Assembly (NCBI GenBank): GCA_031429075.1
Contig: JANOYW010000080.1
Location: 34,991-98,990 of the forward strand
Length of the DNA: 64,000 nt
Reading direction: 5' to 3'
Source of the DNA: Bdellovibrionales bacterium
Lineage (GTDB): Bacteria > Bdellovibrionota > Bdellovibrionia > Bdellovibrionales > JAGQZY01
The translations under genes and the position numbers were made by a program. Under the pieces are notes generated by a model. That model did not search any database, was not told where the DNA came from, and saw only the letters and a program-made list of their open reading frames with translations. Shown here piece after piece: positions 1,481 through 36,454 of this stretch (positions are counted from its first letter, which is position 1; every line of letters starts with the position of its first letter).

Positions 1481-1494
1481 GCCCTTAAAAGCGA

Positions 1495-1689: not shown

Positions 1690-1777
1690 AAATACTCCTA
1701 AAAAGGTTGTGAGGTTCCTGTCTACTGGCGCAGAACGACCTTGTCAATTGTCCATGACCCCAGTTAAGTTTTAGACG

Positions 1778-2935
1778 ATGGAACGAGAGTTAAGCGTCAG
1801 TCCTACTTTAAATAACGACAAGTACTGTCCTCTTTTCTGGAACAGCCTTGCATTGAACGCCACGGGGGCCATTAAGCCCTGTTGTCGATTTATGGAGGAT
1901 CCGCCAGCACCTCAAAGTTTAAAGCCAGGAGATTTAGAAGCGGCCCTCCATAGCTCCAGTTTTATCGCCGCGAGGCAGGCTGTTTCTGAGGGGCTCAAAG
2001 TCTTAGCTTGCAAGCGCTGTCACAACGAAGAAAGCTCCGGCATCCGAAGTCTCCGTCAAACACGGCTAAATCCAAAAGCCAAAACTTTTCATGGTCTAGA
2101 AACCTCTTTGCAGCAAATTGAATTTGTAGAAATTTTTCTAGGTCGAGAGTGCAATCTGGCGTGTCACTCTTGCAAGCCATCCCTGAGCACAAGATGGGGA
2201 GCCGAGTTCAAAAAAATGGGTTTACCTCTTGAGACCTACAAATCCTTTGATTATGAGGAATTAAATCTTTCAAGTTTTGAGTCTTTAAAAGAAGTAAAAT
2301 TTGTTGGTGGGGAAACGTTTATCAATGACCAGCATTTAAAAGTTTTAGCAACGATTCCCATAGAGCAGCGAAGAAATTTAAACATCGAATATTACACCAA
2401 TGCCACCAGACCCATTCCTCAAACATGGTTTGATTTTTGGAGTGACTTTAAGAGAGTCACTATTAGGTTTAGCATCGATGGTTACGGCGCTCTCAATGAA
2501 TACATTCGGTATCCAAGCCAGTGGTCGGTCATTCAGGAGAACATTAACAACGCAGTTTCAAAAAAAAGAGAAAAGATAGAGTTTAGAGTTCAAACGACGG
2601 TGAGCGTGTATAACGTATTTAAATATAAAGAAATTGTGAATTGGTGGGAGCAGGTCATTTCCACTGCGACAAATAGTATACAACCAGTGAAGTTAAATTT
2701 ATTAGATGAGCCTTCATTTATGTCACTGCCTGTTTTGAAGTTAGCTCCAAAATTGTTGGAAACGATAGAGATGCCAGCTGAATGGCTCCGTTTTATCAAA
2801 AATGCCGAGGCAAACCCTGCTCAGGTTGAAAGATTGAAAAACTACACGGAGTCTCTTGATAAACATCGGCAACTGCAGGTGGGCAGGTTTGTTCCCGAGC
2901 TCCTCGACTTATTTTCTGAAGCTAAGGTGATGTGA
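1778..2935 (+). CDS. Radical SAM protein with N-terminal twitch domain (subfamily A)
   Basis: YCPLFW..G.IKPCC...CKRC, then ECNLACHSC, VGGE, FSIDG..NEYIRYPS.W. Confidence 0.9.
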   Translation: MERELSVSPTLNNDKYCPLFWNSLALNATGAIKPCCRFMEDPPAPQSLKPGDLEAALHSSSFIAARQAVSEGLKVLACKRCHNEESSGIRSLRQTRLNPKAKTFHGLETSLQQIEFVEIFLGRECNLACHSCKPSLSTRWGAEFKKMGLPLETYKSFDYEELNLSSFESLKEVKFVGGETFINDQHLKVLATIPIEQRRNLNIEYYTNATRPIPQTWFDFWSDFKRVTIRFSIDGYGALNEYIRYPSQWSVIQENINNAVSKKREKIEFRVQTTVSVYNVFKYKEIVNWWEQVISTATNSIQPVKLNLLDEPSFMSLPVLKLAPKLLETIEMPAEWLRFIKNAEANPAQVERLKNYTESLDKHRQLQVGRFVPELLDLFSEAKVM

Positions 2936-3041
2936 GGCGGGCTGCGCAGAGTCAAAATTGATGGTCAATTTGATGAATTGCGTCGATTATTTCTAAGTTT
3001 AAGTCGGTGGAAAATCATGTAGAGTTTGTTGGGGAGCTCGA

Positions 3042-4322
3042 ATGGAAAACCAGGGTGAATTTGTAGCAATGAAATTTAAATCCAATTTTGTAGGCGCTAC
3101 AAGTGTGGACTGGTATGTCGGAAAGCGCTGTAACTTTGACTGTAGCTACTGCGTGGACTACCTGCACGACAGCACTTCGCCACATGTACCACTAGCAAAT
3201 ATGAAGAAGTTTGTGGATTTTGTGCACGAAAAAAGTGGTGCGAACGTTTTGTGGAGCCTCACTGGTGGCGAGCCAACGCTGAACCCAGACTTCGAGAGCA
3301 TTTGTGAATATATTCGCGTGAAAGGTTCCTCGAATATTAGCATCACAACAAACGGATCTAGAACCGCAAAATACTATGTACAGCTTTTTGAACACCTTGA
3401 TCATATTACTTTGAGTCTTCATTTTGAACATATCGCGCCGAAAAGTTTGTCTTACGTCGAAAAAGTTATTCAAATCGAAAACTGGCGAAAAAAATGGAAC
3501 GAAGAGAATCGAGCAAACTTCAAAAAAGGTCTCGCCCGTAAAAAAACTTTTTTAGTTCGTTTTATGGTCTATCCAGGACTTTTTGAAATGATTGAAGAGA
3601 TGAAGGCGCGCTTTCAAGAGGCTAGTGTTGAGCGCGTTGAATATAGATACATCAGGCCGCTGTCGGGTGGAGCCAACGAACAAATGCCAAGCAAACGGCT
3701 TGAGTTTGCGCAGAATCATGATACCGAAAAAAATCTTTCTCGAATCCATCGGATAGGTAGCGAAATAAAAACGCGAATTACAAAACACTATTTACAATTA
3801 AAATATAAAAAGTTTGATCCTAAGGAAACGCCCCAGGACACGCTTTCTTCAAAGGATCGGCTGGCGATTAAAGACATCGTCGCTCGGGAAGAAAATTGGT
3901 ATTCCGATGGTGAGAAAAAGAAGCTGGATGAGTATTTTTCGGAAGATAACGAAAAAAAACTAATGCTTTTTTTCGAAAAAGAGGGAGAAGTTCAGCCTTC
4001 GGATTATCACTACAATAAACTTAATTTTGAGCGAAAGTCGAATTTTGAGGGATGGTTGTGTTGGGCTGGAATTAAACATATGAAAATCGCCCCTAATGGG
4101 GACATTTACGTTGGTTCATGCCACGTTGGTGGCAAGCGGGGAAATATTTACGAGATAGAGAAAGGCATTGATATGCCAGCGGAGCCATTGCGCTGTCCAA
4201 AGTGGCGCTGTACGGATCATTTGGATTTACGCGTTCCCAAAATTAAAGATTGGAAATACTACAAGCATGTTGAAATAGCCGTGGGAGGGGCGGAGAGATC
4301 CGCACAAAATCAAAATGTCTAA
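3042..4322 (+). CDS. Radical SAM protein with C-terminal SPASM/twitch-like domain (subfamily C)
   Basis: WYVGKRCNFDCSYC, TGGEP, TTNGS; C-terminal FEGWLCWAG..G.I...C..CPKWRC; GGGGAG RBS. Confidence 0.9.
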   Translation: MENQGEFVAMKFKSNFVGATSVDWYVGKRCNFDCSYCVDYLHDSTSPHVPLANMKKFVDFVHEKSGANVLWSLTGGEPTLNPDFESICEYIRVKGSSNISITTNGSRTAKYYVQLFEHLDHITLSLHFEHIAPKSLSYVEKVIQIENWRKKWNEENRANFKKGLARKKTFLVRFMVYPGLFEMIEEMKARFQEASVERVEYRYIRPLSGGANEQMPSKRLEFAQNHDTEKNLSRIHRIGSEIKTRITKHYLQLKYKKFDPKETPQDTLSSKDRLAIKDIVAREENWYSDGEKKKLDEYFSEDNEKKLMLFFEKEGEVQPSDYHYNKLNFERKSNFEGWLCWAGIKHMKIAPNGDIYVGSCHVGGKRGNIYEIEKGIDMPAEPLRCPKWRCTDHLDLRVPKIKDWKYYKHVEIAVGGAERSAQNQNV

Positions 4323-5748
4323 AAAATCAGTTTTTTGCGTAGCTCCCTTTGTTGCACTAAACACTCGCGGACATGGGAACATTCGTGTTTGCTGCTCTAT
4401 TTTAAAAACAGATCGTGGAATTCCAAAAGAAATGACAGTTGACGATAATAATAAAGCCTACGATGAGCGCCAAAGCGATTTTATCTACAACGGCAGTTAC
4501 TACAACTTAACTTTGGACTCCTTTGAAGAAATTTGGAACAGTCCGTTTTATAAAGATATGCGAAAAAAAATGGTCGTCGGAGAGCCGATTTCGAACTGTG
4601 CGTACTGCTACGACATGGAAAAGAATGGTCTTTGGAGCAAACGAATGGGCAGAAATTTGCATTTTTTGGGAAATCCAGAGGGTGACTACGAAACAAACCC
4701 ATCGCCAGAGCCACTTCATCAAAAAACCAGCCAACTCATTCGCAACTGCATTCAATCAGAATACGTGGCCACAGAGACTCCACAGTGGTTGGAACTGCGG
4801 TTTTCAACAATCTGCAATTTGCGCTGTGTGATGTGCTCACCGTCGTTGAGTACTTCGCTTTACGAAGAGTACGACAGCAACCAAAGTTTGTTAAGCGATC
4901 GACAAAAAGGATCTTTAAAAATCGCCAGTAAAATTGCAGAGACAGGGCAGGTTCGGGATTCTGATTTTTTTATGCAGGAAATCAGAAAGATCTCAACCAA
5001 AGGCTTATTTTTTGAGTTTCGCGGTGGCGAAATCTTACAAGATAAAAAAATGTTAAAATTTATGGAAGAGCTTTCGACCGAGGAGCGCGCGCCACAGATG
5101 ATGCTGGATATTACCACCAACGGTATCGGTCTGAACCAAGATCACATAAAGATTTTGAGTCGGTTTAAAGGTGGTAAACTCAAAATCAGTGTCGATGCCT
5201 TTGAGCGAGAAAATGAACTGATTCGGTATCCTTCAAAATGGAAGATGACCGTGAATGCTTTAAAGCAATTTAAAGGCTTACACAAAGGTTGGGTACCCTA
5301 CGTGCAACCGACCTTGAGTGCCTTTCAGGCACCAACAATTGACAGACTCTTGTTATTCTTAGAGAAATTTTCCTTAGAAGAAGGCATCGATCTTCGAGTC
5401 AACGTAACTAAAGTGCGCGGCTTTGAGCACTTGATGTTGAACCTTGTTCCTCTTGAGGATCGTGTCGCAGCGGCCGAGAGTGCCATGGCCATCGCGCAGA
5501 AATCGTTTCTTTGTGCACCAGATGCTATTTATGGAAACAAAAATCGCGAAAGTATTATTGGGCTAAGTCAGGCTCTCAGAGAACCGCAAATAAAAGATGC
5601 TAAAAGTCTTCGTAATCTTTTCGCGCACGTGGACAGCCTTTCGGCGATACGCAAAATCAATTACTACGACACTTTTCCACACTTAGCTCGTATGAAAAAA
5701 GAATTCGAAGAAATACTTTTGCAGGAGCAAGATAGTGCAAGATACTGA
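4315..5748 (+). CDS. Radical SAM protein with N-terminal twitch domain (subfamily A)
   Basis: FCVAPF..RVCC...CAYC, then ICNLRCVMC, RGGE, ISVDA..NELIRYPSKW. Confidence 0.9.
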   Translation: MSKKSVFCVAPFVALNTRGHGNIRVCCSILKTDRGIPKEMTVDDNNKAYDERQSDFIYNGSYYNLTLDSFEEIWNSPFYKDMRKKMVVGEPISNCAYCYDMEKNGLWSKRMGRNLHFLGNPEGDYETNPSPEPLHQKTSQLIRNCIQSEYVATETPQWLELRFSTICNLRCVMCSPSLSTSLYEEYDSNQSLLSDRQKGSLKIASKIAETGQVRDSDFFMQEIRKISTKGLFFEFRGGEILQDKKMLKFMEELSTEERAPQMMLDITTNGIGLNQDHIKILSRFKGGKLKISVDAFERENELIRYPSKWKMTVNALKQFKGLHKGWVPYVQPTLSAFQAPTIDRLLLFLEKFSLEEGIDLRVNVTKVRGFEHLMLNLVPLEDRVAAAESAMAIAQKSFLCAPDAIYGNKNRESIIGLSQALREPQIKDAKSLRNLFAHVDSLSAIRKINYYDTFPHLARMKKEFEEILLQEQDSARY

Positions 5749-6397
5749 ACTTCTAGAGAGCGAGAAAACCCACTTTCTTTTGCCTAACTTTCCACAAGAG
5801 TTCATTCTAAAGGGACGAGAGCTTTGGAAAGAAATTCAAGCACTGGATGTAAATGGACCGGGAAGCCACGAAGTTCCAAAAATGATTCCGCTCAATGGCA
5901 GTCCGCATTTTTTTGTTCGTCGAGCCTCCAGAACGTTTATCATGTACAAAATTACTGGGCCGCAAAAAAGAATTTTTCAAGTTATCGATGAAGACGATTC
6001 CGTTGAATTTTATGTGGGTCTTGCCGAAAAATATGTAGCCGATCCGCACCTGGATCGAGGTCGAAGACTGTGTGCAATTAATCTACCCATCGACGTGAAC
6101 TACGCTGAAAGTTTTTTTATGATAGGGAAGTACTTCGACCATTGTAAATACCGAGAGAAGCCAGTGGCCGATTCCCCGTATCAATTTCAACTCGACAATT
6201 CCGATGATCCAGGTGGTAAATTTTATTACGACAAAGAACATTTCGAGCAATATAGCATGGAGACGCCAGTTCTCTTCAGCGCGAAAACTCCTCACGGGGG
6301 TAGAAGTTGGGCAAAAACACCACGTGTAGTAATGAGCATCGGGTTTGCGCAACCCCTCAGCGTGATACAACGTAAACTACCCAAAGAGTGGTTTTAA
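5735..6397 (+). CDS. Putative 2OG-Fe(II) oxygenase / cupin-fold protein
   Basis: PHLD (HxD) ... AINLPI ... PVLFSAKTPHGG ... RVVMSIGF gives an HxD...H triad plus distal Arg; overlaps both neighbours. Confidence 0.6.
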   Translation: MQDTELLESEKTHFLLPNFPQEFILKGRELWKEIQALDVNGPGSHEVPKMIPLNGSPHFFVRRASRTFIMYKITGPQKRIFQVIDEDDSVEFYVGLAEKYVADPHLDRGRRLCAINLPIDVNYAESFFMIGKYFDHCKYREKPVADSPYQFQLDNSDDPGGKFYYDKEHFEQYSMETPVLFSAKTPHGGRSWAKTPRVVMSIGFAQPLSVIQRKLPKEWF

Positions 6398-7650
6398 TGT
6401 CGTTAAATGATGCAAAAATCACATCGACAACTTATTGCGTAAATTTGTTTTACCAATTAGGTACCAAAGTTGATGGAAGTTTTCGCCCCTGTTGTAATTA
6501 TTCAGGTCCAATTATGGATAAAGATGGGCAACCCGTGCATGCATCGACCCATTCCATCCAGGAGTATTTTAACTCCGAGGGTATGAAAGCGCTGCAAAAC
6601 AAATCTCTAAATAGTGAAAAAGTACCGGGGTGCGAGAGTTGTTACCACTATGAAGCGAATACGGGGCAGTCCAAGCGCGTAAGGGACAACATTAAATTTC
6701 AAGAAGCTACCGCCAACGAAAATCCTTCAGAGGGCGGTAAAATTAAAATTCTTGATTTGCGAATGGGGAATCTTTGTAATTTGGGCTGTGTCTCCTGCCA
6801 ACCATTGCTATCTTCAAAATTAGAAAAATTGTGGGGAGAACACGGTGCCGACAAATTTTCGGATAAAAGTGTAGCCGCCCAAATACCCGCCAAACATCGT
6901 TCGTGGTACAAGAGTAGTCAATTCGTTGATGAAATTGGTGAGAACAGTCATGGCATAGTGTCCCTCGCATTGGTCGGCGGAGAACCGTTGATCAATCCGT
7001 ATAATATCGCGCTGCTTAAAAAGCTCAGCCACCTTGGAAAAAAGCTTAAGCTTTCGGTCACCTCGAATATCTTTTCTGTTCCCGAGGATGTGCTGGAGCT
7101 GCTTAAAGTATTCAATACAACAATTGATTGCTCTCTTGATGGCATCGGTCCCATGATTGAATACATACGTTACCCGGTGAAGTTTGATGATGTGGTAAAT
7201 AATTACAAGCGTATTTGCGAAGTGGGGATCTCAACACGAATCATATGTACGATTTCGGTTCTCAATCTATTTCATATCGCAGAAAGTTATGAATTTTACC
7301 ATCAATTGAACAAGAATTTTGGGCGAAAGCTAAAAATGTCGGTGGGTAATCTTGTGTTGAAACCTGAGCACTTAGCAATTAGACATCTCCCCGAGGCTTA
7401 TAAACAGAGGGCCATCCAGCAGTTAACAGATTTTTATGGGACGCTCTCGAGAGATCATCACGAAGACACCATTAGAGGAAGTACGCGGAACCTCATCAGC
7501 TATCTACAGAACTCTAAAGGCGATATTAAGAAGATTCGCGATAAATGGAAATTCATCGAAAACTATGATCAAATCAGAGGAAATTCTTGGCAAAAAGTTG
7601 CTCCTCACCTGCAAGGAATCTTAGATGCTCAGCCTGAACTCAGCATTTAA
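6397..7650 (+). CDS. Radical SAM protein with N-terminal twitch domain (subfamily A)
   Basis: YCVNLF..FRPCC...CESC, then LCNLGCVSC, VGGEP; ATG overlaps the upstream TAA (TAATG). Confidence 0.9.
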   Translation: MSLNDAKITSTTYCVNLFYQLGTKVDGSFRPCCNYSGPIMDKDGQPVHASTHSIQEYFNSEGMKALQNKSLNSEKVPGCESCYHYEANTGQSKRVRDNIKFQEATANENPSEGGKIKILDLRMGNLCNLGCVSCQPLLSSKLEKLWGEHGADKFSDKSVAAQIPAKHRSWYKSSQFVDEIGENSHGIVSLALVGGEPLINPYNIALLKKLSHLGKKLKLSVTSNIFSVPEDVLELLKVFNTTIDCSLDGIGPMIEYIRYPVKFDDVVNNYKRICEVGISTRIICTISVLNLFHIAESYEFYHQLNKNFGRKLKMSVGNLVLKPEHLAIRHLPEAYKQRAIQQLTDFYGTLSRDHHEDTIRGSTRNLISYLQNSKGDIKKIRDKWKFIENYDQIRGNSWQKVAPHLQGILDAQPELSI

Positions 7651-8932
7651 ATTTCTTACCAAAGAATTGCGTTTCATTGCAAGACGTCGCTGGCGAAAAC
7701 GTCAGCTGAACAATACATTTTGCATTAATTTTTTCTCCCAGGCATCGACTAAGACAAATGGTCTGTTTCGCCCATGTTGTCATTTTGTGGGAGTGATCAA
7801 GGATGAAAATGAGAAGCCGTTCCATGCCGCAACCCATTCTATTAAGGATTACTTTTTTTCCAATGCCTTGAAAGAAATTCGGCGCAAAGCCTTAAACAAA
7901 GAGGCAATTAAAGGCTGTGAGAATTGCTACGAAATAGAAAAAGCAACTCAGCAGTCAAAAAGAGTCCGAGATAATGATCGGTATCATGAAATTTGGAAAG
8001 AGATCCGAAAAAAACCGGAGCGAGCAGAAATTAAAATGTTAGATTTACGGCTGGGAAATGACTGCAATTTAGGATGCGTTAGCTGTATTCCGGCTTTGTC
8101 ATCAAAATTAGAGCAGCTTTGGGATAAGCATGGCGCAATTCATTTTACTGACGACCCAATGCTCACCAAACCTGTGAAACCCAAAGAGGTATCGATTCCG
8201 TGGTACAACCAAATAAACCTGGTTGAGCAAATTAATGAATTACAAAATGATCTTTCCTATTTGGCCTACGTCGGCGGAGAGCCACTCATTAATGATACAA
8301 ATTTTGACATTTTGGAAAGTCTTGAAGGTAAGGGTAAGAAATTAAATTTACATGTCACCTCCAACCTCATGGCTCTTACCGATGAAAAATTACGCACGTT
8401 AGAAAAATTTAACACCCAAATCAACTGCTCCCTGGATGGGGTGAATGAAACCATCGAGTACATTCGTTTTCCAGCCAAGTTTTGGGTCATCGAAAAAAAC
8501 CTTAGAAAAATCCTAAATTCGTCGGTGAACGTGCAGATTATTTTCACGGTTTCTGTGCTCAATATTTTTCATATCGTTGAAGCCTATCGAGTGTATCGAA
8601 AAATCCACGATGACTGCGGGCGGGGTCTCAATTTAACGGTCGGCAACTTTGTTATCAAGCCAGGCCATCTTGCCGTTAAAAATCTCCCAAAAGAGCTTAA
8701 GCAACAAGCCCTCACCCAACTTGAGCCGTTGTATTATGAAATCAAGCGCGACGAAACACAGGCGGTGTTCAGTGCCAGCTTGCTCAGTCTTATTAAGTAT
8801 CTCCATAACACCGAGGGCGATGTTGACATCATCAAAAGCGGCTGGCGATTTGTGAAAAAATACGATGAAATTCGAGGAAATAATTGGAAAGAGTGTGCTC
8901 CATGGATGGGAGAAGTTCTCAATGAACTCTAG
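7625..8932 (+). CDS. Radical SAM protein with N-terminal twitch domain (subfamily A); tandem paralog of 6397-7650
   Basis: FCINFF..FRPCC...CENC, then DCNLGCVSC, VGGEP; collinear similarity to the upstream gene. Confidence 0.9.
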   Translation: MLSLNSAFKFLTKELRFIARRRWRKRQLNNTFCINFFSQASTKTNGLFRPCCHFVGVIKDENEKPFHAATHSIKDYFFSNALKEIRRKALNKEAIKGCENCYEIEKATQQSKRVRDNDRYHEIWKEIRKKPERAEIKMLDLRLGNDCNLGCVSCIPALSSKLEQLWDKHGAIHFTDDPMLTKPVKPKEVSIPWYNQINLVEQINELQNDLSYLAYVGGEPLINDTNFDILESLEGKGKKLNLHVTSNLMALTDEKLRTLEKFNTQINCSLDGVNETIEYIRFPAKFWVIEKNLRKILNSSVNVQIIFTVSVLNIFHIVEAYRVYRKIHDDCGRGLNLTVGNFVIKPGHLAVKNLPKELKQQALTQLEPLYYEIKRDETQAVFSASLLSLIKYLHNTEGDVDIIKSGWRFVKKYDEIRGNNWKECAPWMGEVLNEL

Positions 8933-10052: not shown

Positions 10053-10053
10053 T

Positions 10054-12926: not shown

Positions 12927-13007
12927 GGTCTCACTCTATGGGAAATACTTGTCGACTCTTTACACACTCATTTATAATATGTACTTTTGGAAATAAAAAG
13001 GGAATTG

Positions 13008-17167: not shown

Positions 17168-17209
17168 AAGGTATGCTAAATTAAACAATTATAGATTAGG
17201 CAGCAATTT

Positions 17210-20739: not shown

Positions 20740-20861
20740 GAGAAAAGGCTACAGAATCTTCGCAGGCTGTTCATTGTTTTTGCTTTAGAATTTATAGATT
20801 AAACACCGCAACAAAATGGCTATATCTAGCGCGCACCCACAAGGTCGGATAAGAATTATAT

Positions 20862-22172: not shown

Positions 22173-22190
22173 CCCAAAGGTAGTGCTACT

Positions 22191-24433: not shown

Positions 24434-24437
24434 AAAT

Positions 24438-25454: not shown

Positions 25455-25476
25455 GGAGTCTCCAATACTTAGATCG

Positions 25477-26622: not shown

Positions 26623-26712
26623 AGATCTCCTATGGTGTTCCTTGAGCGAATTACTCTCTGCGTCTATTTCGCCAGGATTGAATAATTTTTACCCATTGGT
26701 ATAGATAAAACA

Positions 26713-28924: not shown

Positions 28925-30102
28925 GCAAATTGAAAATTAAAATTGCGCTCTCTTTCGCTTCGATACTAATATCTCCGGTGGTCATTTTTTCTGCTCTAGA
29001 GTGCATGGCTCGATGGTCTGAACTGCCTCAATTTTTAAATTTTCAAACCGATTCAAAACCTGTAAATTGTAGTAACGCCACGAAGAGTTCCTACCGACTC
29101 TCAGTGGACTTCAGTCATCAGCAAAAGACAAAATACTTGAGCGAAGAGATTACCTATAAAAAACTAGTAAAAAACTACGACTATATTTATACTAACGAGC
29201 TCGGTTATCCGGTCCATAAAGAAAATCAAAATTTCCAACAACGCGCAACGGTTATCGAAACGGGAGAAACTGCCTACGATGTTAAGTACAGCTTTGATGA
29301 GAGGGGACGTCGTAAAGTTCCAGGAGCGGATAAAATTTTTGCCAATTCGCATTTAGCCATTAGTGGGTGCTCCGTTGTTTTTGGAGAAGGACTTGAAGAT
29401 GAGCAAACCCTACCGGCACAACTCCAAAAAAAGGTTCAAAAAACTAAAGTATATAATTTGGGCCGCGCAGGCGGATCTGTAGTGGATGCGATCTCAACGA
29501 TGCAAGTAACCAATTTGTGGAAGGATATCGATCCCAAAGAAGGAGCTCTGCTTTTCTTTCATTCCTCGCAAACTCATGTGCCTCGGTTTCTTGGCACCAT
29601 CTCGACGGTGGGAGTGTGGAATAATTACGGTGCTTTTTTAAACGAAGAGGCTGCCACGGGAGCGTTCCAGTATGGCGGCGTTTACGACAGAAACAGACCA
29701 ATTTGGACCTTGTTGAGTCGTTGGGCAACGAGATCTCAGTTCTTAAAAAGAATAAATTTTGATTGGCCACCAACTACAAATTCTGCACTTGAAGCTTATG
29801 TGCGAGCCTTGAGTTTTTTACAGCAGCAGTACCAGCTAATCACAGACGCCAAAAATCCAATGGTGGTCTATTTTCGCCCCGGCGAAAAGGATTCGTGCAA
29901 GATCATACCTTATCTCGAAAAATATAAAATTTATTATTTGGACTATTCCGATTTTGAAATGAAACGCTACGCAACACGGCCGCTAAAAATCCAATATGAC
30001 GCTCACCCTACTGAAGAATTTAATCGAATTCTTTCGCAGCAATTAATGCACGATTTGACCTTCCACGAAAACACCCAAAAAATTCAACGTACATTTTTTT
30101 AA
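28918..30102 (+). CDS. Membrane-anchored SGNH/GDSL-like hydrolase/transferase
   Basis: N-terminal TM helix, GCSVVFGEG block I, YNLG block II, DAHP block V. Confidence 0.75.
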   Translation: MVSKLKIKIALSFASILISPVVIFSALECMARWSELPQFLNFQTDSKPVNCSNATKSSYRLSVDFSHQQKTKYLSEEITYKKLVKNYDYIYTNELGYPVHKENQNFQQRATVIETGETAYDVKYSFDERGRRKVPGADKIFANSHLAISGCSVVFGEGLEDEQTLPAQLQKKVQKTKVYNLGRAGGSVVDAISTMQVTNLWKDIDPKEGALLFFHSSQTHVPRFLGTISTVGVWNNYGAFLNEEAATGAFQYGGVYDRNRPIWTLLSRWATRSQFLKRINFDWPPTTNSALEAYVRALSFLQQQYQLITDAKNPMVVYFRPGEKDSCKIIPYLEKYKIYYLDYSDFEMKRYATRPLKIQYDAHPTEEFNRILSQQLMHDLTFHENTQKIQRTFF

Positions 30103-30105
30103 AAA

Positions 30106-31263
30106 TTATATTCCATTTAGCCTTTTTTTATTTTCAGCAAGCTTGAGATCACATGTCATCTGTTCCGCAAGCAATCGATTGTATTCAGCGGTTGGGTGCC
30201 CATCGCCCGGTATAAAAATTTCGGTTTGGGCATACTTCGATAATGAAAAATCCGTATAATCCAGATAGTGAATTTTGTATTTTTCAAGATATGGAATGAG
30301 ATGGTTCCATTTTTTCTGAGGTTCAAAATAAACAACAAATTGATTTTTATTTCCGTAGAGCTTTAGGTAGTTTTCTTTAACCTGAAGAATTGCTTTTGCA
30401 TAGTTTTCAAGGGTAACATTGGTGACTCTAGGCCAGTCGAAACCTATCAGCTTAAAAAGTTTCGACTGAACAAATAAATTTGAAAAATGTACGTACCAGC
30501 GCTGATGTTTGCTATACACACCGCCAAAAGAATATTTATCTGTCGATATATCATAGTTCAAGTAAGCGCGATGCCCCCCGTGCTGGCCTATGCTAGATAG
30601 TGTTCCAAGGAATCTACGCATATGCATGGAGTAAGAGAAGTTGAATAATACGAGCCCTTCTTTGGGCTCGATACCATCCCACATCTTGGTTTTTTCTTGC
30701 GACGCAATAACATCGGCCACGGACCACCCCGGTAGGCCGATCGTGTACGAGTGAGATTCTGGGTTTTTGACCTGCAGAAAAGTTGCTAAAGTTTCGTGGT
30801 CAGGTAGTCCCATTCCAAAGACAAAAGAGCATCCAATAACAATTGTATGTCTTTTGGGCCGTTCTGAGGTTTTGGGCGTAGTTCTTCTACCATTGTCGTC
30901 TATTTGGTAGGTCATATCGAAAACAGTCTGCCCTGTTTGTGGGATTATGAATTGCTGATAGCCTTTAAAACTAGGCATGGCAAGCCACAGACCGCTTTCG
31001 TCTTCTCTGTAGAAGTCGGAGCGTATTTCCATGTCTGCTATAAATAATTCGGGCTGTTTGAAGCTTTTTAAGGGCAAACATTTTTTGCTTCTCACGAGCC
31101 TATATTGGGAGGTTGGGGGAAGGGAGAGTCTTTGTAAGTCAGAAAACGGCAAGGGAAATTTTTGGTCGCTAAAGTAAAAACGCACAGCAAATTCGGCACA
31201 AAAGAAAATGATAATCAGCATGATTAGGGCGATACAACTTCCTGTAATACTTTTTTTAATCAT
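30106..31263 (-). CDS. Membrane-anchored SGNH/GDSL-like protein, paralog of 28918-30102
   Basis: N-terminal TM helix, GCSFVFGMG, DGHP; shares WxxIxPKEG, RFLGT, FDWP and IPYLEKYKIxYLDY with its convergent neighbour. Confidence 0.75.
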   Translation of the reverse strand: MIKKSITGSCIALIMLIIIFFCAEFAVRFYFSDQKFPLPFSDLQRLSLPPTSQYRLVRSKKCLPLKSFKQPELFIADMEIRSDFYREDESGLWLAMPSFKGYQQFIIPQTGQTVFDMTYQIDDNGRRTTPKTSERPKRHTIVIGCSFVFGMGLPDHETLATFLQVKNPESHSYTIGLPGWSVADVIASQEKTKMWDGIEPKEGLVLFNFSYSMHMRRFLGTLSSIGQHGGHRAYLNYDISTDKYSFGGVYSKHQRWYVHFSNLFVQSKLFKLIGFDWPRVTNVTLENYAKAILQVKENYLKLYGNKNQFVVYFEPQKKWNHLIPYLEKYKIHYLDYTDFSLSKYAQTEIFIPGDGHPTAEYNRLLAEQMTCDLKLAENKKRLNGI

Positions 31264-31275
31264 ATAATAATTTTT

Positions 31276-31425
31276 TTAAAAAATTGTATAGATAAACGGC
31301 GAGGCCACAGTCCCGCTACCCAAATAAAGAAGTGCAGATAGAGTCAGGAGTATCAAAAAAAAGGGGATCATCCACCATTTTTTATTTTCGATCGCAAACT
31401 GCCAAAGTTCAATAATAATTCTCAT
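31276..31425 (-). CDS. DUF5989 / SxtK-like small membrane protein (49 aa; not in ORF track)
   Basis: Hand translation MRIIIELWQFAIENKKWWMIPFFLILLTLSALLYLGSGTVASPFIYTIF; KKWW and PFIYTxF signature; ATGA overlap with the carbamoyltransferase stop. Confidence 0.88.
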   Translation of the reverse strand: MRIIIELWQFAIENKKWWMIPFFLILLTLSALLYLGSGTVASPFIYTIF

Positions 31426-33236
31426 GTATTTTCCTTAGTTATTATTATCTTATGCAGATTTTTTTGCTTTTCCAAGACGTAATTTCCAAGAACAAGGAAA
31501 TCGAGATCAGTTTTTAAAAAGCACAGTATGGCGTCGCGAGGATGATCTACGATAGGTTCTCCTCGAACATTAAAGCTCGTATTTACAAGCATAGGCACGT
31601 TCGTATGTTGATCGAACATTTTTAAAAGCTTGTGAAGCAATGGGTTTTGTTCGTGGGTGACAGTCTGTAGGCGTGCGCTGTAGTCCAGATGGGTGACGGC
31701 GGGCACCGTCGAACGGGTCGTATTTAATCTCTCTTGGGAGGTTGAAAAAGCCTGTGCTTGTAATCGATGGACTTTTAACAAATCGGCAACAAACAGCATG
31801 TAAGGACTGTCTGATGGGCAATTTTCAAACCACTCGTGGGCTTTTTCCGCCATTACAATTGGCGCAAAAGGACGGAACGATTCGCGAAATTTAATTTTTA
31901 AATTGAGTTTCGACTGCATAGTCGCGCAGCGAGCATCAGCAAGGATCGAACGCGATCCCAAAGCACGAGGGCCATATTCTGATCGCCCCTGAAACCATCC
32001 CACGGCATCCCCTTGGATCAATGAGTGACAGGTTTTTTCTAAAAGTAGGCTCTCATCACAAAGCTCATAAACGACACCCATTTCGTCGAGACATCTTTGG
32101 ATTTCATTATCGTCGTAAGCGGAACCCAAATAGGAATAAGACATAGTGTCTTTGTTCTGAAGTTTGTAGCGCGGTTGTTTAAAATGCAAAGAGTGGGCGG
32201 CGAGCGCGGCGCCCAGGGCGCTGCCAGCATCTCCAGAGGCTGGCTGAATCCAAATGTTTTTAAAACGGCCATCGCGAAAAATTTGACTGTTGCTCACACA
32301 GTTGAGCGCCACACCGCCAGATAAACAAAGAGCTGGGATGGAGTATTCTTTAAACAACGCACGCGTTAACTGAATCATCAGATGATTGAGTACGGCTTGC
32401 GTCGAAGCCGCAATATCCATGTAAACCGGTTCTATGAAAGATTCGGGGCTTCGCGGCGGCACGGCAAACAGTTTGCTGAGCTCTTCGGTAAACATTTTCT
32501 GCGTGGATGAAAAATCAAAATATTTAAGGTTGAGTTGAAAAGAGCCATCATCTTCGATGCGAATGAGATTATCTAAGATCGTGGCAAAGAAGCGTGGCGT
32601 TCCATAAGGAGCAAGCCCCATCAATTTGTATTCACCAGAATTTACTTTAAATCCACAAAATGTCGTGAGGGTGGAATAAAAAAGTCCCAACGAGTGGGGA
32701 AAATGAATCTCCTTTTGCAGCTCAATTTGATTTTCGTTGCCAATGGAAACTGTGGACGTGGCCCATTCGCCAAGGCCGTCCAAGGTAAGAATCAAAGCCT
32801 TTGAAAAAGGCGATGGAAAAAAGGCACTGGCAGCATGACTCAGGTGATGTTTGGAAAATAGTAGTTTTGCTTCGTTAAACCGAGGGTCAATACGACGAAG
32901 TTCCTTAAGAAGGTCACTTTGCATAAAAAGAGTTTTGGTGAATGTTTCGGAAAAACTATCAACAAAGGCGACGGGGTTCCATGGAGCGTCCTTTAAGTAG
33001 CTTTCGATTTGTCGATCGAGTTTTAATAAGGGTTTTTCATAAAAGACAATAGCATCGAGCTCGCGAAGTTCCATTTTGGCATAGGAAAGGGCCGCTAAAA
33101 CGGCATGATGGGGAAAACGGGAATCGTTTTTTAGCCGCGAAAAGCGTTCCTCCTGCGCCGCAAACACTGGCTTACCACCGACCACAAGAGCGGCAGCACT
33201 GTCATGAAAATAACAAGAGATTCCTAAGATTTTCAT
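31422..33236 (-). CDS. O-carbamoyltransferase (NodU/CmcH/SxtI family)
   Basis: ILGISCYFHDS, QEERFSR.K, HHLSHAASAF, DGLGE, EYKLMGLAPYG, GGVALNC, EYGPRALGSRS, RESFRPFAP, NTSFN; start set at ATG 33236. Confidence 0.95.
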   Translation of the reverse strand: MKILGISCYFHDSAAALVVGGKPVFAAQEERFSRLKNDSRFPHHAVLAALSYAKMELRELDAIVFYEKPLLKLDRQIESYLKDAPWNPVAFVDSFSETFTKTLFMQSDLLKELRRIDPRFNEAKLLFSKHHLSHAASAFFPSPFSKALILTLDGLGEWATSTVSIGNENQIELQKEIHFPHSLGLFYSTLTTFCGFKVNSGEYKLMGLAPYGTPRFFATILDNLIRIEDDGSFQLNLKYFDFSSTQKMFTEELSKLFAVPPRSPESFIEPVYMDIAASTQAVLNHLMIQLTRALFKEYSIPALCLSGGVALNCVSNSQIFRDGRFKNIWIQPASGDAGSALGAALAAHSLHFKQPRYKLQNKDTMSYSYLGSAYDDNEIQRCLDEMGVVYELCDESLLLEKTCHSLIQGDAVGWFQGRSEYGPRALGSRSILADARCATMQSKLNLKIKFRESFRPFAPIVMAEKAHEWFENCPSDSPYMLFVADLLKVHRLQAQAFSTSQERLNTTRSTVPAVTHLDYSARLQTVTHEQNPLLHKLLKMFDQHTNVPMLVNTSFNVRGEPIVDHPRDAILCFLKTDLDFLVLGNYVLEKQKNLHKIIITKENT

Positions 33237-33243
33237 GCGCCCT

Positions 33244-33606
33244 CTAAAACATTCGATCAAACCGTTGATTGTTCCTAGGCTTTTGCCATCCGCGGCTTGG
33301 TGTTTTAGCTCTTACCAGACGCAAACCCAAGGACAGGGGAGAAACAAGCAGAAAATAAAAAATGATTAAAAAAATGGGTTGTAGCAACCAAGCCAAACAA
33401 ATACCTACATAAAACCAAAGTGTGTTTAAAATGGATAAGTAACGTCTTAAAAAAAAGGCAGGCACAAGTAGCAACGAAGTCAGGGACCATGGAGGTGAGA
33501 TAAAACAAAATGCGCTCATCAAAAGAAAAACAAGAAATAAAGAAAAACTTTTAAGTGAGGGACGAACCGACTGTTCAAGTCGAACGAAATCAGATCGAGT
33601 CCACAT
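33244..33606 (-). CDS. SxtJ-like membrane protein
   Basis: 2-3 TM helices, W...G..L.....P.FL...YF..V.P pattern, C-terminal FDRMF; directly upstream of the carbamoyltransferase. Confidence 0.65.
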   Translation of the reverse strand: MWTRSDFVRLEQSVRPSLKSFSLFLVFLLMSAFCFISPPWSLTSLLLVPAFFLRRYLSILNTLWFYVGICLAWLLQPIFLIIFYFLLVSPLSLGLRLVRAKTPSRGWQKPRNNQRFDRMF

Positions 33607-35008
33607 AATCGTCTAATTTATGAAGCGGGGTTTCTGGCGTTAGAAGCTCTGACATCTCCGGAAACGTTTTTGTAAATGAGGTTCCTCGAATGGAATCCAT
33701 GTGCGTAATATATTCCCGAAACTGCGGCATGCGATTTGACCAATCCTCAGACTCCATAAATTTCAGCATTCCTTCGAGTCTTTTAATGCCATAAGGATTA
33801 TTTAAAAACTCTTCATCGTTGCGATGATTTTTTAACAACCACGAATAGAAAGATTCGTATTTGCAGCGAATTTTCTGTTTAAAATTTTTAGGAAAAACTT
33901 TTACGTTTAAATGCGCAGGGTGATAAACAAAATGATAATTAATCAAGCCTGCACCCAAGGGCCACGCATTTATTTTTTTGTAATTCTGCTTAAGCTTCCA
34001 GCGGATAAAATCCGGAATATAAAACATGTTTAGCATTTGTACGGCACAGGCAATGGTCACTTCCACGTGATTTGGTGTATCGTCCAGAAGTCGTAGGTGC
34101 TTTTCGATGGTCTCCCACTTTGCGGGATAACGAATGTACGAATTCATTTCTCCAATGCTGTCGATACTAAAATGAAAACGGACACGGCGAAACTTTTCCC
34201 AAAGTGCGAACAACCTGTCGGGAAGCTCAATCCCGTTACTGTTGTAGCGGAGTTCGATATTTTTTGCATAGCCCCTGCGCACACACTCTTCGAGAAGTTC
34301 GTAGTGTTCTTCGATGATAGTGCTTTCGCCACCGGCAAAATAAAGTTGCTGCATGTGGGGAATTTGCTCGTACAGTTGTTCCCAAAACGCGGGATTGTCT
34401 TTGTGCCAGTCGTAACTCGCACCATCGACTTGTCCATTGTTATCCCAAATCATAACCTGTTTCAGTTCGGCGTTTTGGATTTTAGGGTAGAGTTTCTTCC
34501 AGTCCGAAACCCAAAGCGAACTGTCGTGCGGTGAGCACATAACACATTTTAAATTACATTTTGTACCTAATCGTAAATCCACATAATAAACGCGCGGAGG
34601 GACGGAACCATCTGTTGCGGTTTCATCAATTAACTTTTGCAAATCAATTCGCGAGCTCCAATACTCAGTTTCCCAATTCCGTTTTGAGCGATGCCCGGCA
34701 GCTTCTTCCTTAAAACACTTCGTGCAGGACGATGGAATTTCGCCAGCTAGCATCTTCTGTCGCACATCGCGCATATAGCCGTTATTCCAGCCTTCCAGCA
34801 GCGGGGTATGATTTAGATTGGCAGGCTTGCCATTGTCGTTTTTTAAAATGCCCACTTCGCCACCCCAAATTTTGTCGTTTGTCGCTCCGGCCGAAGAAGC
34901 ATTGGCCGTGCAACACACCCGCATGTGTCCATTGGGACGTGTCGAAAGGTGAATCCACGGAAGCGCACAGTAAGTTGAACTAGGGGGTTGAAAAGAATTC
35001 TGAGCCAT
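33590..35008 (-). CDS. Radical SAM protein with N-terminal twitch domain (subfamily A)
   Basis: YCALPW..NGHMRVCC...CTKC, then KCNLKCVMC, AGGES, YNSNG, FSIDS..NSYIRYPAKW; start set at ATG 35008. Confidence 0.92.
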   Translation of the reverse strand: MAQNSFQPPSSTYCALPWIHLSTRPNGHMRVCCTANASSAGATNDKIWGGEVGILKNDNGKPANLNHTPLLEGWNNGYMRDVRQKMLAGEIPSSCTKCFKEEAAGHRSKRNWETEYWSSRIDLQKLIDETATDGSVPPRVYYVDLRLGTKCNLKCVMCSPHDSSLWVSDWKKLYPKIQNAELKQVMIWDNNGQVDGASYDWHKDNPAFWEQLYEQIPHMQQLYFAGGESTIIEEHYELLEECVRRGYAKNIELRYNSNGIELPDRLFALWEKFRRVRFHFSIDSIGEMNSYIRYPAKWETIEKHLRLLDDTPNHVEVTIACAVQMLNMFYIPDFIRWKLKQNYKKINAWPLGAGLINYHFVYHPAHLNVKVFPKNFKQKIRCKYESFYSWLLKNHRNDEEFLNNPYGIKRLEGMLKFMESEDWSNRMPQFREYITHMDSIRGTSFTKTFPEMSELLTPETPLHKLDDYVDSI

Positions 35009-35122
35009 TCGGGAAGAATAAGCCAGATCGCGGAGAGGAGGCAAAGGCTTGGTGCCGATTAACGAGCCGAGTTACTCCTTTTGGCCATTCACTCGGAGGC
35101 AAAAGTGGAGTATTGGCATACC

Positions 35123-36454
35123 ATGTCTGAAGTCCAAGCCAGTACGTATAAACAAAGTGTGTTTGATGAAAAGGTTCTGCAGTTCTGCCTGAGCGTTGTC
35201 GACTTTGTCGAAGTCTTTCCCGCCGACAACGAACTTTTAAGGCGCGCCGTTTTAGATGCTATAAGCTTTTGTCGATCCATGGAAGAAGTGGCGGCCTATT
35301 TATCAGCTCTCAAAACCAGCTTGCAAAACAAATCTAAGTTCAACCCTTCCGATCTTCTCAGTGTTGCGAAAGCTGTGGGGCAAGATTCACCCGCAGTGCT
35401 GTATGACTTTTTGTTAACCATTGAAAAATTGGGCGTTACCACTCATTTTTCACATTTGAGAGACCAGCGCGGCGACCAGGGTAGTAACCAGGGGACTAAA
35501 CTGTGGAGTGAGTTTTTTAATGGCGTGCACATACTCGTTAAAAACCAAGTTCAGCTTGCTGATTTTTTAAATACGACGCGTTTTTTGTGCGACGCTGAAG
35601 AGGACTCCGAATGGGAGGAGTTTTTTAGCGCGACAAAGTCTTTGCAAAAAGAAAAGTCGCAGAGCCTGCAAGATTTTTTCACCACGGTTCGCTTTCTGGC
35701 GCCGACAAAATTCCCCGCGTGGAGCTCGTTTTATACGGCTTGCAAAAAGTTAAGCCTCTCGAATAAAGGAGAGGCCGCTTTTTTCGAGGCTGTTCGGCAT
35801 TCGCGTCATTATTTTCTCACTTCACAAAGCTTTCAAGGCATTTTGCGTGCGTTATCAGAGACTCCCGAATACTCAAATGCGCTGGCCTTTGGCCAACTCG
35901 ACAGTAAAAAGTGGCTCATCGAAGAGGCGTTAAAAGTTTGGGGCTCCGCTTGGGGAAACACCGTGTTTGTTCTCGCCGGTTGGGTGGGTCTTTTGCCGCG
36001 AATGATGTACGATCAAAATATCGAAGTTTTAAAAGTTCGTTCATTCGACGTGGATGCAACTGCGAATCTCGCTTCGGAAAGCATCAACCAGGTAGAGGTT
36101 CAGCAGGATTGGGCCTACAAATCATCTACTCAGGACATCACGCAGATGCAATACCCAGCCACCTACAAGGTGTTGCGGAAAGATGGCAGCCCGTGCGAAC
36201 TTTGCGAAATGCCCGATGTTGTCATCAACACGAGCTGCGAACACATCGCTGATATAAACTCTTGGTGGAAACAAATTCCTACCGGAACCAAAGTGATTTT
36301 GCAATCCAACAACGGCTTTCATATTCCCGAGCATGTGGCGTGCTTCAAAAATTTAGCAGACTTTGCAGCAACGATGCAGCTGTCTCGCACCGATTACGCG
36401 GGAGAAAAAGATCTTCCCGAATTCAAACGCTTTATGTTGATTGGTGTAAAATAG
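35123..36454 (+). CDS. Class I SAM-dependent methyltransferase-like domain with an N-terminal helical repeat region
   Basis: C-terminal GQLDSKKWL, VLAGWVG, RSFDVD, INTSCEH, LQSNN; three 36-aa repeats upstream; start uncertain (35081/35123). Confidence 0.65.
   Translation: MSEVQASTYKQSVFDEKVLQFCLSVVDFVEVFPADNELLRRAVLDAISFCRSMEEVAAYLSALKTSLQNKSKFNPSDLLSVAKAVGQDSPAVLYDFLLTIEKLGVTTHFSHLRDQRGDQGSNQGTKLWSEFFNGVHILVKNQVQLADFLNTTRFLCDAEEDSEWEEFFSATKSLQKEKSQSLQDFFTTVRFLAPTKFPAWSSFYTACKKLSLSNKGEAAFFEAVRHSRHYFLTSQSFQGILRALSETPEYSNALAFGQLDSKKWLIEEALKVWGSAWGNTVFVLAGWVGLLPRMMYDQNIEVLKVRSFDVDATANLASESINQVEVQQDWAYKSSTQDITQMQYPATYKVLRKDGSPCELCEMPDVVINTSCEHIADINSWWKQIPTGTKVILQSNNGFHIPEHVACFKNLADFAATMQLSRTDYAGEKDLPEFKRFMLIGVK

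Follow-up and report, generated by a model that had tools for sequence, protein, structure and literature searches.

The 64,000-nucleotide stretch analysed here (the window; contig JANOYW010000080.1, positions 34,991 to 98,990, of the Bdellovibrionales assembly GCA_031429075.1) carries, between its positions 1778 and 36454, an island in which 16 genes for radical S-adenosylmethionine (rSAM) enzymes are interleaved with genes for membrane proteins and putative tailoring enzymes. Genes are named below by their lower coordinate in the window. Four of them form a conserved core: 35081, which encodes a protein with a methyltransferase fold, and one rSAM gene from each of three groups, namely 33590 (group A), 27782 (group B) and 26713 (group C). 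Extra paralogues of the same three rSAM types form exchangeable cassettes around this core, sometimes with a partner resembling short-chain dehydrogenases/reductases (SDR), and a 20862-like rSAM gene and a carbamoyltransferase module often accompany it.

A preliminary description of this DNA had counted 16 open reading frames (ORFs) with an intact CxxxCxxC motif, and all 16 were verified, between 1778 and 35044 of the 34.7-kb island; three starts were moved slightly upstream, where a longer ORF is possible (6388 rather than 6397, 8865 rather than 8922, and 27782 rather than 27851). Every one of them matches PF04055 at E ≤ 0.01, and 14 do so above the gathering cut-off of 29.5 bits. The two below it are 27782 (22.7 bits) and 1778 (16.9 bits), the latter of which, weak on this model, passes NF033640 at 257 bits. 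The genome as a whole has 35 PF04055 matches, and because 15 of these lie inside the island, which makes up 1.1% of the genome, the clustering is not a matter of chance; three more are found in a second, small cluster on contig C73. Many of the genes had been described as translationally coupled, and same-strand overlaps are present at 15 of the 29 junctions when the longest ORFs are used.

NCBIfam profiles and all-against-all BLAST divide the enzymes into three groups. The eight members of group A (1778, 4315, 6388, 7625, 11721, 20862, 25477 and 33590) carry an N-terminal twitch domain with the cysteine pattern C-x17-CC...CxxC, in which C26, C44, C45, C107 and C110 (33590 numbering) are invariant, as is the GGE SAM-binding motif; a YIRYPSKW-like motif is also common to the group. 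In the five members of group B (8865, 10635, 23351, 24438 and 27782) the rSAM motif lies at the extreme N-terminus and a twitch/SPASM-like cysteine cluster, C-x19-CC...CxxxC, at the C-terminus. Group C (3042, 22191 and 26713) has four C-terminal cysteines and a MoaA/viperin-like N-terminus, the resemblance to MoaA, viperin and QueE being limited to the N-terminal ∼100 residues. Extra conserved cysteine clusters are thus found in all 16 proteins, in agreement with the auxiliary domain at first assigned to each. Pairwise identity within and between the groups is 20–45%, and the island enzymes are therefore old paralogues. The rSAM genes and 35081 are as follows, with the strand in brackets.

1778–2935 (+): group A rSAM; CxxxCxxC at residue 125; NF033640 257 bits, PF04055 16.9 bits
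3042–4322 (+): group C rSAM; CxxxCxxC at residue 30; PF04055 52 bits; no NCBIfam cut-off reached
4315–5748 (+): group A rSAM; NF033640 239 bits; SPASM 22.2 bits, residues 8–98
6388–7650 (+): group A rSAM; NF033640 288 bits; 45% identity to 7625
7625–8932 (+): group A rSAM; NF033640 280 bits
8865–10052 (+): group B rSAM; PF04055 31 bits; SPASM 20.8 bits, residues 283–372; 31–34% identity to the other group B proteins
10635–11744 (+): group B rSAM; PF04055 32 bits; cysteine pattern present
11721–12926 (−): group A rSAM; NF033640 300 bits
20862–22172 (+): group A rSAM, frequent companion of the core; NF033640 396 bits
22191–23354 (+): group C rSAM; PF04055 55 bits
23351–24433 (+): group B rSAM; PF04055 40 bits
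24438–25454 (−): group B rSAM; PF04055 38 bits; SPASM 20.1 bits, residues 242–328
25477–26622 (−): group A rSAM; NF033640 261 bits
26713–27858 (+): core rSAM, group C; PF04055 55 bits; mostly 61–92% identity in Bdellovibrionota loci, mostly 58–84% in viral loci
27782–28924 (+): core rSAM, group B; PF04055 22.7 bits, below cut-off
33590–35044 (−): core rSAM, group A; NF033640 432 bits; 65–90% identity in Bdellovibrionota, 52–67% in 80 viral loci
35081–36454 (+): core partner; helical N-terminal domain and class I methyltransferase-fold C-terminal domain (residues 266–457) in an AF2 model compared by Foldseek

The eight group A proteins are full-length members of NF033640 (N_Twi_rSAM; 239–432 bits over model positions 1–397, cut-off 170), a subfamily model without assigned function. 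The remaining eight rSAM proteins, in the two other groups, score 25–66 bits on it over the core region only. The SPASM model PF13186 (cut-off 21.5 bits) is exceeded by 4315, 11721 and 25477, while six others score 16.8–20.8 bits and seven have no match. No island member reaches the NCBIfam equivalog cut-off of any characterised rSAM family, the best secondary matches being 40–58 bits against cut-offs of 180–855 (the models compared were PapB, SCIFF, StsB, YhhB, anSME, MoaA, viperin, QueE, BlsE, Tes and tungsten cofactor maturase).

In a sequence search of the PDB, 33590 had no match, and 26713 and 27782 were matched only at the N-terminal rSAM motif. The predicted model of the N-twitch protein (predicted local distance difference test, pLDDT, 87) matches SkfB, CteB, anSME, SuiB, MoaA, BlsE and viperin in Foldseek at a template modelling (TM) score of ∼0.3. 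With SkfB, CteB, anSME, BlsE and MoaA it shares a partial TIM-barrel rSAM core and an auxiliary Cys-ligated domain (Foldseek probability 1.0), but it differs from the solved SPASM/twitch enzymes in the low TM score, in an identity of 12–17% and in that the auxiliary domain of group A is N-terminal. Since the matches to these differing enzymes are about equally weak, the fold does not reveal the substrate. Literature searches turned up neither a paper that explains what N-terminal-twitch rSAM proteins or NF033640 do nor a description of rSAM clusters in Bdellovibrionota.

Two side observations concern the same gene families. A 160-nt stretch that is 68–70% alike in three group B genes (9362–9521, 11090–11249 and 28270–28429) is the sole long internal DNA repeat of the island. 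Elsewhere in the source genome, a second small cluster (C73:8937–13874) holds three N-twitch rSAM genes and an rSAM frame with a TAA stop, possibly a pseudogene.

Integrity and turnover of the island

The island is a real, intact and hypervariable chromosomal locus at a fixed site in this Bdellovibrionales (Pseudobdellovibrionaceae-like) bacterium. One genome of the same genus, G002, is syntenic with the window from 14344 to 36454. Its left flank is 85–94% identical and the left 11 kb of its island differ; the block 14344-15006-16265-17210-19339-20862 follows in the same order at 59, 37, 57, 34, 49 and 80% identity, and from 20862 to 35081 most genes are 74–92% identical, with 28918, 31422 and 35081 at 42–59%. 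In a second genome of the genus, G004, the flanks are 96–97% (left) and 87–95% (right) identical and the right-hand module from 26713 to 33590 is retained at 44–88%, and the left 25 kb are swapped for other rSAM paralogues, with identities of 25–33%. A member of another genus, G009, carries at the same site a 10-kb version with four rSAM genes, between flanks of 51–73% identity. The G+C content is 0.39–0.44 inside the island compared with 0.46–0.48 in the flanks.

The genome was assembled as a metagenome-type record in 94 contigs, and this would favour an artefact, that is, an assembly chimera, a set of pseudogenes, or unrelated housekeeping rSAM genes that happen to lie side by side. Such an explanation can hardly be entertained, given that the frames and motifs of all 16 genes are intact, that synteny is kept in independent genomes, that, as noted above, 1.1% of the genome contains 15 of the 35 rSAM matches, and that contigs from two further samples cover the stretch. 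The latter come from two non-source runs of a second study (X5 and X6) and tile most of 1000–20999 at ≥95% identity, with 30 of 30 depth bins covered and pieces of up to 5.4 kb that span several genes. The cluster of 16 rSAM enzymes as such is therefore real, and the chimerism or pseudogene decay that the preliminary description named as grounds for abandoning it was not seen.

An origin of the island as a prophage or mobile element was considered and rejected: there is no tRNA gene before position 42919 and there are no flanking repeats at the borders, no phage structural family appears among the Pfam matches of the window, and the same site is used in several genomes.

Of 24 genomes sampled from the same family, 21 have NF033640 matches above the cut-off, one genome having as many as 24, whereas only three of 16 genomes from other families of the order have any. 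Beyond these, an orthologue of 33590 (E ≤ 1e-120) was present in three of 150 other genomes sampled across the phylum, and the 12 genomes of family f10 yielded no such orthologue.

The core and its occurrence in T4-like phages

A scan of species-representative genomes gave 78 loci. In those from Bdellovibrionota the 33590 orthologue (65–90% identity) is accompanied by 27782, 26713 and 35081 and often by a 20862-like gene, relatives of which (42–54% identity) adjoin the core in other genera and in phages. In locus L032 (9159–13588) the core is reduced to a minimal four-gene operon, in the order 35081-like, 33590-like, 26713-like and 27782-like.

The same genes are abundant in viruses. The language-model Atlas places 33590 beside clusters that are 88–100% viral, and a scan of IMG/VR yielded at least 594 viral stretches that encode a relative (594 of the 600 pattern matches listed). 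The counts given here are for the best 80 of these at least 594 stretches, all of which have a 33590 orthologue at 52–67% identity, and a partner is counted by its best match of any identity. A 27782-like gene is present in 70 of the 80 loci, a 35081-like gene in 65, a 20862-like gene in 64 and a 26713-like gene in 43; a carbamoyltransferase and a 10039-like (SDR-like) gene each occur in 14. The order 35081-like, 27782-like, 33590 orthologue is kept in 49. The number of rSAM ORFs per viral locus (≤21 kb) has a median of 7 and a maximum of 13, all from the same three groups, and reaches five or more in 59 of the 80. Their median G+C content is 0.34. True T4-like phages make up the largest viral records: the Gp23 capsid protein is present in four of the largest five and Terminase_6N in three of the five. 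One phage, G042, is 328 kb long, has terminal repeats and is rated complete, and its 22 PF04055 matches are scattered over the genome.

A tree of 33590 was built by a quick method (FastTree; 106 rows, including the best 80 of many viral matches) and rooted on 20862-type paralogues. In this tree the 21 Bdellovibrionota rows all group together in a single clade (support 99), which is nested within the viral diversity and is sister to a viral clade of seven rows (support 95). The nesting suggests one old exchange between phage and bacteria, and the direction may possibly have been from phage to bacterium.

We also considered whether the system occurs widely in unrelated phyla and rejected this, as all four rows of that kind fall among the viral rows in the tree and two of the bins carry T4-type capsid genes. 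Bin G048 (L048; Gammaproteobacteria MED685) has three Gp23 capsid genes and bin G049 (L091; Chloroflexota NAT137) has one. Because of these capsid genes, and because the rSAM loci group with viral contigs, the MED685 and NAT137 loci are probably phage contigs mis-binned as bacterial.

Among isolated phages, 33590 gave four records at 23–28% identity and no close orthologue, 27782 gave four weak records from three phages (CP220 twice, its relative F379, and Pelagibacter phage Mosig), 35081 gave one record, and 26713 gave no match. In the Ralstonia jumbo phage RsoM2USA an N-twitch rSAM gene (gene 349) lies one gene away from a 35081-like gene (gene 347), in a region annotated as hypothetical proteins only.

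Phage rSAM genes have been reported before. The Campylobacter phages CP220 and CPt10 have 11 and 12 rSAM genes, respectively, including an exchangeable module of five, and each cluster in their divergent central region appears to contain an amidinotransferase (PMC2853527); rSAM genes of T4-like phages adjoin amidinotransferase and sugar-aminotransferase-type genes (PMC2853527, PMC12801897). A marine T4-like environmental genome of 183 kb has 12 rSAM genes (PMC5332604), and the host-recognition clusters of pelagimyophages combine rSAM cassettes with genes of lipopolysaccharide type (PMC7029224). The island resembles these cassettes in its many paralogous rSAM genes, exchangeable modules and variable regions, and the likeness extends to the genes themselves, in that the core (33590, 27782 and 35081, with or without 26713) is found in T4-like viral contigs. 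It differs in lying at a fixed site on a bacterial chromosome together with glycan-type membrane genes. The parts of the phage papers that we consulted mention the rSAM genes without family assignment, core or function, and the core-and-cassette system shared with phages appears to be undescribed beyond such passing mentions.

The non-rSAM member of the core, 35081, has no match in Pfam, NCBIfam or PHROG, and specifically no match to a methyltransferase hidden Markov model (HMM). In its AF2 model (pLDDT 88) a helical N-terminal domain precedes a Rossmann-type C-terminal domain, which is matched in Foldseek by the small-molecule class I SAM methyltransferases NodS, TehB, Fur6 and SibL; for NodS and TehB the Foldseek probability is 1.0 and the TM score by target 0.6–0.67. 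The putative SAM loop reads AGWxG rather than GxGxG, and G300, W301 and D325 are invariant, with D323 nearly so. With 195 members in 97 loci this family is the commonest non-rSAM neighbour, and its conserved part is the C-terminal 190 residues. In a set of 1.84 billion proteins, its profile retrieves 641 representative clusters at E ≤ 1e-30 and 1725 when the limit is relaxed to E ≤ 0.001. The protein represents a new methyltransferase-fold family that lacks any Pfam, NCBIfam or PHROG model. As a side observation, several phage proteins of 864–1222 amino acids end in a domain of this type (L125:1327–4995, L127:3916–7092, L131:16–3330, L122:5677–8703, L123:1198–4443 and L162:4795–7389), and their N-terminal parts gave only weak or spurious family matches.

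Interleaved and neighbouring genes

The other genes of the island are listed below.

5735–6397 (+): possible cupin oxygenase of 220 amino acids; H105-x-D107 and a later His, motif only; no Pfam, NCBIfam or PHROG match
10039–10635 (+): small SDR-like protein, recurrent cassette partner; weak adh_short_C2 match (E 0.005)
12987–14366 (+): polytopic membrane protein, like glycosyltransferases of the GT-C type (lead only); 7 hydrophobic segments; no HMM match
14344–15009 (−): CMP-sugar type cytidylyltransferase (NeuA/PseF-like); CTP_transf_3 87 bits
15006–16325 (−): orphan of 439 amino acids between the NeuB-like and NeuA-like genes; no family match
16265–17188 (−): NeuB-family ulosonic acid synthase-like protein; PF03102 145 bits
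17210–19438 (+): GT-C-like membrane domain fused to a flippase-like domain; LPG_synthase_TM at residues 489–634; 14 hydrophobic segments
19339–20739 (−): polytopic membrane protein, taken to be paralogous to 12987 and to the N-terminal half of 17210; 8 hydrophobic segments; N-termini alike by eye
28918–30102 (+): possible SGNH/GDSL protein; weak NF047474 match (E 4e-4); same BLAST cluster as 30106
30106–31263 (−): possible SGNH/GDSL protein; weak NF047474 match (E 4.5e-6)
31276–31425 (−): hydrophobic peptide of 49 amino acids adjoining the carbamoyltransferase; kept in seven loci; no HMM match
31422–33260 (−): O-carbamoyltransferase (NodU/CmcH type); Carbam_trans_N 292 bits, Carbam_trans_C 226 bits, phrog_1601 354 bits
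33244–33606 (−): membrane protein of 120 amino acids; 3 hydrophobic segments; 61% homologue in the same position in G004

The names first given to these genes hold in part. Pfam verified NeuB, CTP_transf_3, both carbamoyltransferase domains and LPG_synthase_TM in 17210–19438, whereas the SGNH, SDR and HxD..H oxygenase labels have weak matches or a motif only. The GT-C label is retained as a lead: an Atlas structure search with 12987 gave TM scores of 0.76–0.82 to PMT/DUF6020 (GT-C) clusters, and none of the three polytopic proteins (12987, the N-terminal half of 17210, and 19339) matches a GT-C HMM in Pfam or NCBIfam. The NeuB-like protein scores 127 bits against an equivalog cut-off of 400 (TIGR03569, NeuB_NnaB) and 101 against 340 (TIGR03586), and the cytidylyltransferase-like protein 106 against 206 for PseF (TIGR03584). 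For 31422, both domains of the NodU/CmcH-type class are above their cut-offs, whilst the NodU equivalog itself is missed (156 bits against 1000). PHROGs recognised only ‘radical SAM domain-containing protein’ and ‘Nol-like carbamoyltransferase’ among the window proteins. The orphan 15006 has only two homologues among 5.8 billion clusters, and a 37% homologue occupies the same position in G002.

Around the carbamoyltransferase, the gene set resembles the SxtI-SxtJ-SxtK-SxtL module of saxitoxin synthesis (PMC2679770), as far as that source was consulted: the enzyme, of 612 amino acids, has the same length as the product of sxtI (1839 bp), and a protein of ∼120–134 amino acids, a peptide of ∼49–54 and a GDSL-type protein lie alongside, an agreement in size and type alone. 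It differs in gene order, and the rest of the saxitoxin pathway is absent here. The source genome has two further carbamoyltransferase paralogues (C77:17508–19313 and 22256–23737), 29–34% identical to 31422–33260. Just outside the island edge, 36910–37830 (−) encodes a Cys-containing, Pro-rich putative lipoprotein with a 77% paralogue on contig C11.

NeuB/NeuA-like, GT-C-like and flippase-like genes occur in three of the four islands examined within the genus, the third being that of G003, with NeuB-like (36%), 15006-like (24%) and 17210-like pieces. They are local additions to the island and not conserved partners of the core. It was also observed that the glycan block (window 14344–20739 against L176:4096–10440 of G002) is 34–59% identical within a right half that is otherwise 74–92% identical, and this low identity resembles allelic replacement at surface-polysaccharide genes. 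The island as a whole has much in common with hypervariable loci of that kind, namely a fixed site, conserved flanks, lower G+C, strain-level gene replacement, and NeuB-like, cytidylyltransferase, polytopic transferase-like and flippase-like genes. It differs from them in that no Wzx, Wzy, Wzz or ABC exporter family is matched in the window and in that its conserved core does not consist of glycan genes; to our knowledge, rSAM genes are usually few or absent in loci of this type.

The LPG_synthase_TM domain of 17210–19438 also bears on lipid tailoring, in which the rSAM enzymes would modify acyl chains or head groups of the membrane or of lipid A and the MprF-like flippase domain would move the products outward. 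Weak matches to the tetraether lipid synthase Tes, and GDGT-MAS in the fold search, point the same way, but these are weak and generic. Moreover, acyl-carrier, acyltransferase and fatty-acid genes are missing both from the Pfam matches of the window and from the 25 neighbour families listed in each set of loci, and the core is not regularly accompanied by the flippase-like gene, so we regard this as very unlikely.

Neighbouring genes in the other loci were tallied by Pfam from ORFs drawn at random, 148 from viral and 147 from genome-collection loci, with 25 families listed for each set. In the viral set we found QueC-like PP-loop proteins (10), Asp/Asn hydroxylase-like proteins (7), nitroreductases (6), aldehyde dehydrogenases, carbamoyltransferases, B12-rSAM proteins and PNP_UDP_1 (3 each), TauD, FkbM and Asn synthase (2 each) and NifU/Nfu (1). 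The genome-collection set gave glycosyltransferase family GT2 (9), QueC-like proteins (4), NTP_transf_3 (3), several methyltransferases, and nitroreductase, TauD and hydroxylase (2 each). Most of the recurrent neighbour families have no Pfam match. Recurrent partners with a recognisable type are the carbamoyltransferase, SDR-like, aminotransferase-like, aldehyde dehydrogenase and 2-oxoglutarate oxygenase proteins and PNP_UDP_1, which is of the nucleosidase type acting on 5′-deoxyadenosine or methylthioadenosine; the conserved partners are the 35081 family, the small SDR-like protein and the carbamoyltransferase. The SDR-like family of 10039 has 25 members, found among other places in 16 viral loci, and 21 of the 25 adjoin an rSAM gene. 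Phage rSAM clusters (e.g. L149:11824–12372) were also seen to carry genes of the PNP_UDP_1 nucleosidase type, for a NifU/Nfu scaffold and for ClpP; the first two fit removal of the 5′-deoxyadenosine by-product and supply of Fe-S clusters for many rSAM enzymes.

This neighbourhood could be taken to indicate that the rSAM enzymes crosslink, epimerise or C-methylate a ribosomal peptide or structural and surface proteins, such as phage fibres or predator adhesins, with the hydroxylases, nitroreductase-like, PP-loop and methyltransferase-fold proteins as co-tailoring enzymes. Asp/Asn beta-hydroxylase-like proteins (7/148), nitroreductases (6), Asn_synthase/PP-loop proteins and B12-rSAM proteins, all present among the viral neighbours, are a set also typical of clusters for ribosomally synthesised peptides that carry post-translational modifications (RiPPs). 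The weak secondary NCBIfam matches of the island enzymes are mostly RiPP maturases, and SkfB, CteB, anSME and SuiB are the best structural neighbours of the N-twitch model. However, no RiPP maturase cut-off is reached (PapB, for example, gives 41 bits against 340), and the TM score to peptide maturases is ∼0.3, with BlsE, MoaA and viperin scoring alike. The preliminary description had seen no precursor peptide, and we likewise find no conserved precursor-like small ORF in the window, which has almost no intergenic space. Nor is a leader-binding N-terminal domain evident: nothing precedes CxxxCxxC in groups B and C, and in group A the twitch domain alone does, although no dedicated search for RiPP recognition elements was made. 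A conserved ORF of about 70 amino acids between the 35081-like and 27782-like genes, found in 37 loci, might supply a substrate, but the window lacks it and its product is not rich in Cys, Ser or Thr. On balance protein modification seems unlikely. The small ORF itself encodes 70–77 amino acids, is probably helical and is found mostly in viral loci; in L034 (5316–5531) and L048 (5427–5651) it directly follows the 35081-like gene, with the 27782-like gene downstream of it, and it is also seen at L100:642–875.

The QueC-like PP-loop proteins, which are the top viral neighbour family (10/148) and occur in bacterial loci as well (4/147), raise a different prospect, namely that the system makes modified nucleotides, such as deazapurine-like or viperin-like ones, to hypermodify DNA or to act in conflict with host, prey or phage. 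DNA hypermodification is known from T4-like phages; genes for thymidylate synthase, ThyX, dCMP deaminase and DHFR lie near the viral clusters, and models of MoaA, viperin and QueE are matched by the group C N-termini with E values of 1e-10 to 1e-15. Those matches, however, cover only the shared N-terminal cluster-binding part and are far below the cut-offs, and the nucleotide-metabolism genes may be ordinary phage neighbours. Chemistry of this kind would leave unexplained the GT-C-like and flippase-like proteins, the carbamoyltransferase with its small membrane partners, and the presence of up to 24 N-twitch matches per bacterial genome with strain-level turnover. We therefore consider it somewhat less likely than protein modification.

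Possible products of the system

The reading that we tentatively favour, as possible rather than probable, is that the rSAM system tailors a sugar-like small-molecule unit which in this strain is attached to a surface glycoconjugate. It is suggested by the small-molecule methyltransferase fold of 35081, by the SDR-like, carbamoyl, aminotransferase and dehydrogenase partners, by the fact that neither a leader-binding domain nor a precursor is evident, and by the glycan genes present in the genus. The core enzymes would make or alter a single small-molecule unit, for which a sugar or nucleotide-activated sugar is the likeliest candidate, and each extra rSAM cassette would add one radical tailoring step. 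Candidate steps are C–H activation leading to epimerisation, dehydration or deoxygenation with an SDR-like partner, and formation of C–C bonds or C-methylation; an rSAM dehydratase paired with an SDR reductase is known from aminoglycoside deoxygenation. Chemical diversity could then arise combinatorially as cassettes are added. Activation of the unit in this strain may fall to the NeuB-like and cytidylyltransferase-like proteins, the unit may also be O-carbamoylated, and the flippase-like and GT-C-like proteins may move it across and attach it to a surface glycoconjugate outside the inner membrane. Turnover of cassettes among close relatives would reflect diversifying selection on the surface structure.

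Several results weigh against this. The commonest viral neighbours are QueC-like PP-loop, Asp/Asn hydroxylase-like and nitroreductase proteins, and the families listed for the 148 viral neighbour ORFs, 25 out of 43 matched, include no glycosyltransferase. Even in the bacterial genome-collection loci, where GT2 is the commonest neighbour family, it accounts for 9 of the 147 ORFs. The island of G004 has no homologue of the glycan block of the window at E < 1e-10. The GT-C assignment depends on a single look-up by language model and structure, the NeuB-like and cytidylyltransferase-like proteins are well below their equivalog cut-offs, and the solved structures closest to the N-twitch model, at a TM score of ∼0.3, are mostly peptide-modifying (SkfB, CteB, anSME and SuiB). 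Because the viral neighbourhoods weaken a glycan product, protein modification and nucleotide chemistry stay in contention.

The glycan assembly line of the preliminary description is thus borne out only in part. The NeuB-like, cytidylyltransferase, GT-C-like and flippase-like block is present in this strain and in two of the three other islands of the genus, but the glycan genes are not conserved partners of the system, being missing from the G004 island and unrepresented by any viral glycosyltransferase among the families listed. The preliminary description would have been abandoned had conserved co-occurrence with glycan genes been lacking, and G004, the GT2 count and the viral neighbours go some way in that direction.

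The presence of the same system in aquatic T4-like phages changes what needs to be explained. A bolder proposal, and a rather doubtful one, is that the core of three rSAM enzymes and the methyltransferase-fold protein makes a new scaffold which the swappable cassettes decorate combinatorially, the product being displayed on the cell or virion, or imposed on an infected host, and governing recognition or evasion between predator, prey and phage. If true, the system would represent a diversity generator of a new class, based on radical enzymes, and would be a rich source of new rSAM chemistry. As no member of the three rSAM groups has an assigned reaction, the system points to unexplored radical chemistry, and a defined four-gene core with a minimal operon makes heterologous reconstitution feasible. 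The core is not confined to one genome, since the majority of genomes sampled from one Bdellovibrionota family have it, as do viral contigs from public metagenomes, at least in the hundreds. Because cassettes are exchanged rapidly at one fixed site, the system may take part in recognition at surfaces, and this would bear on phage host range and on bacterial predation.

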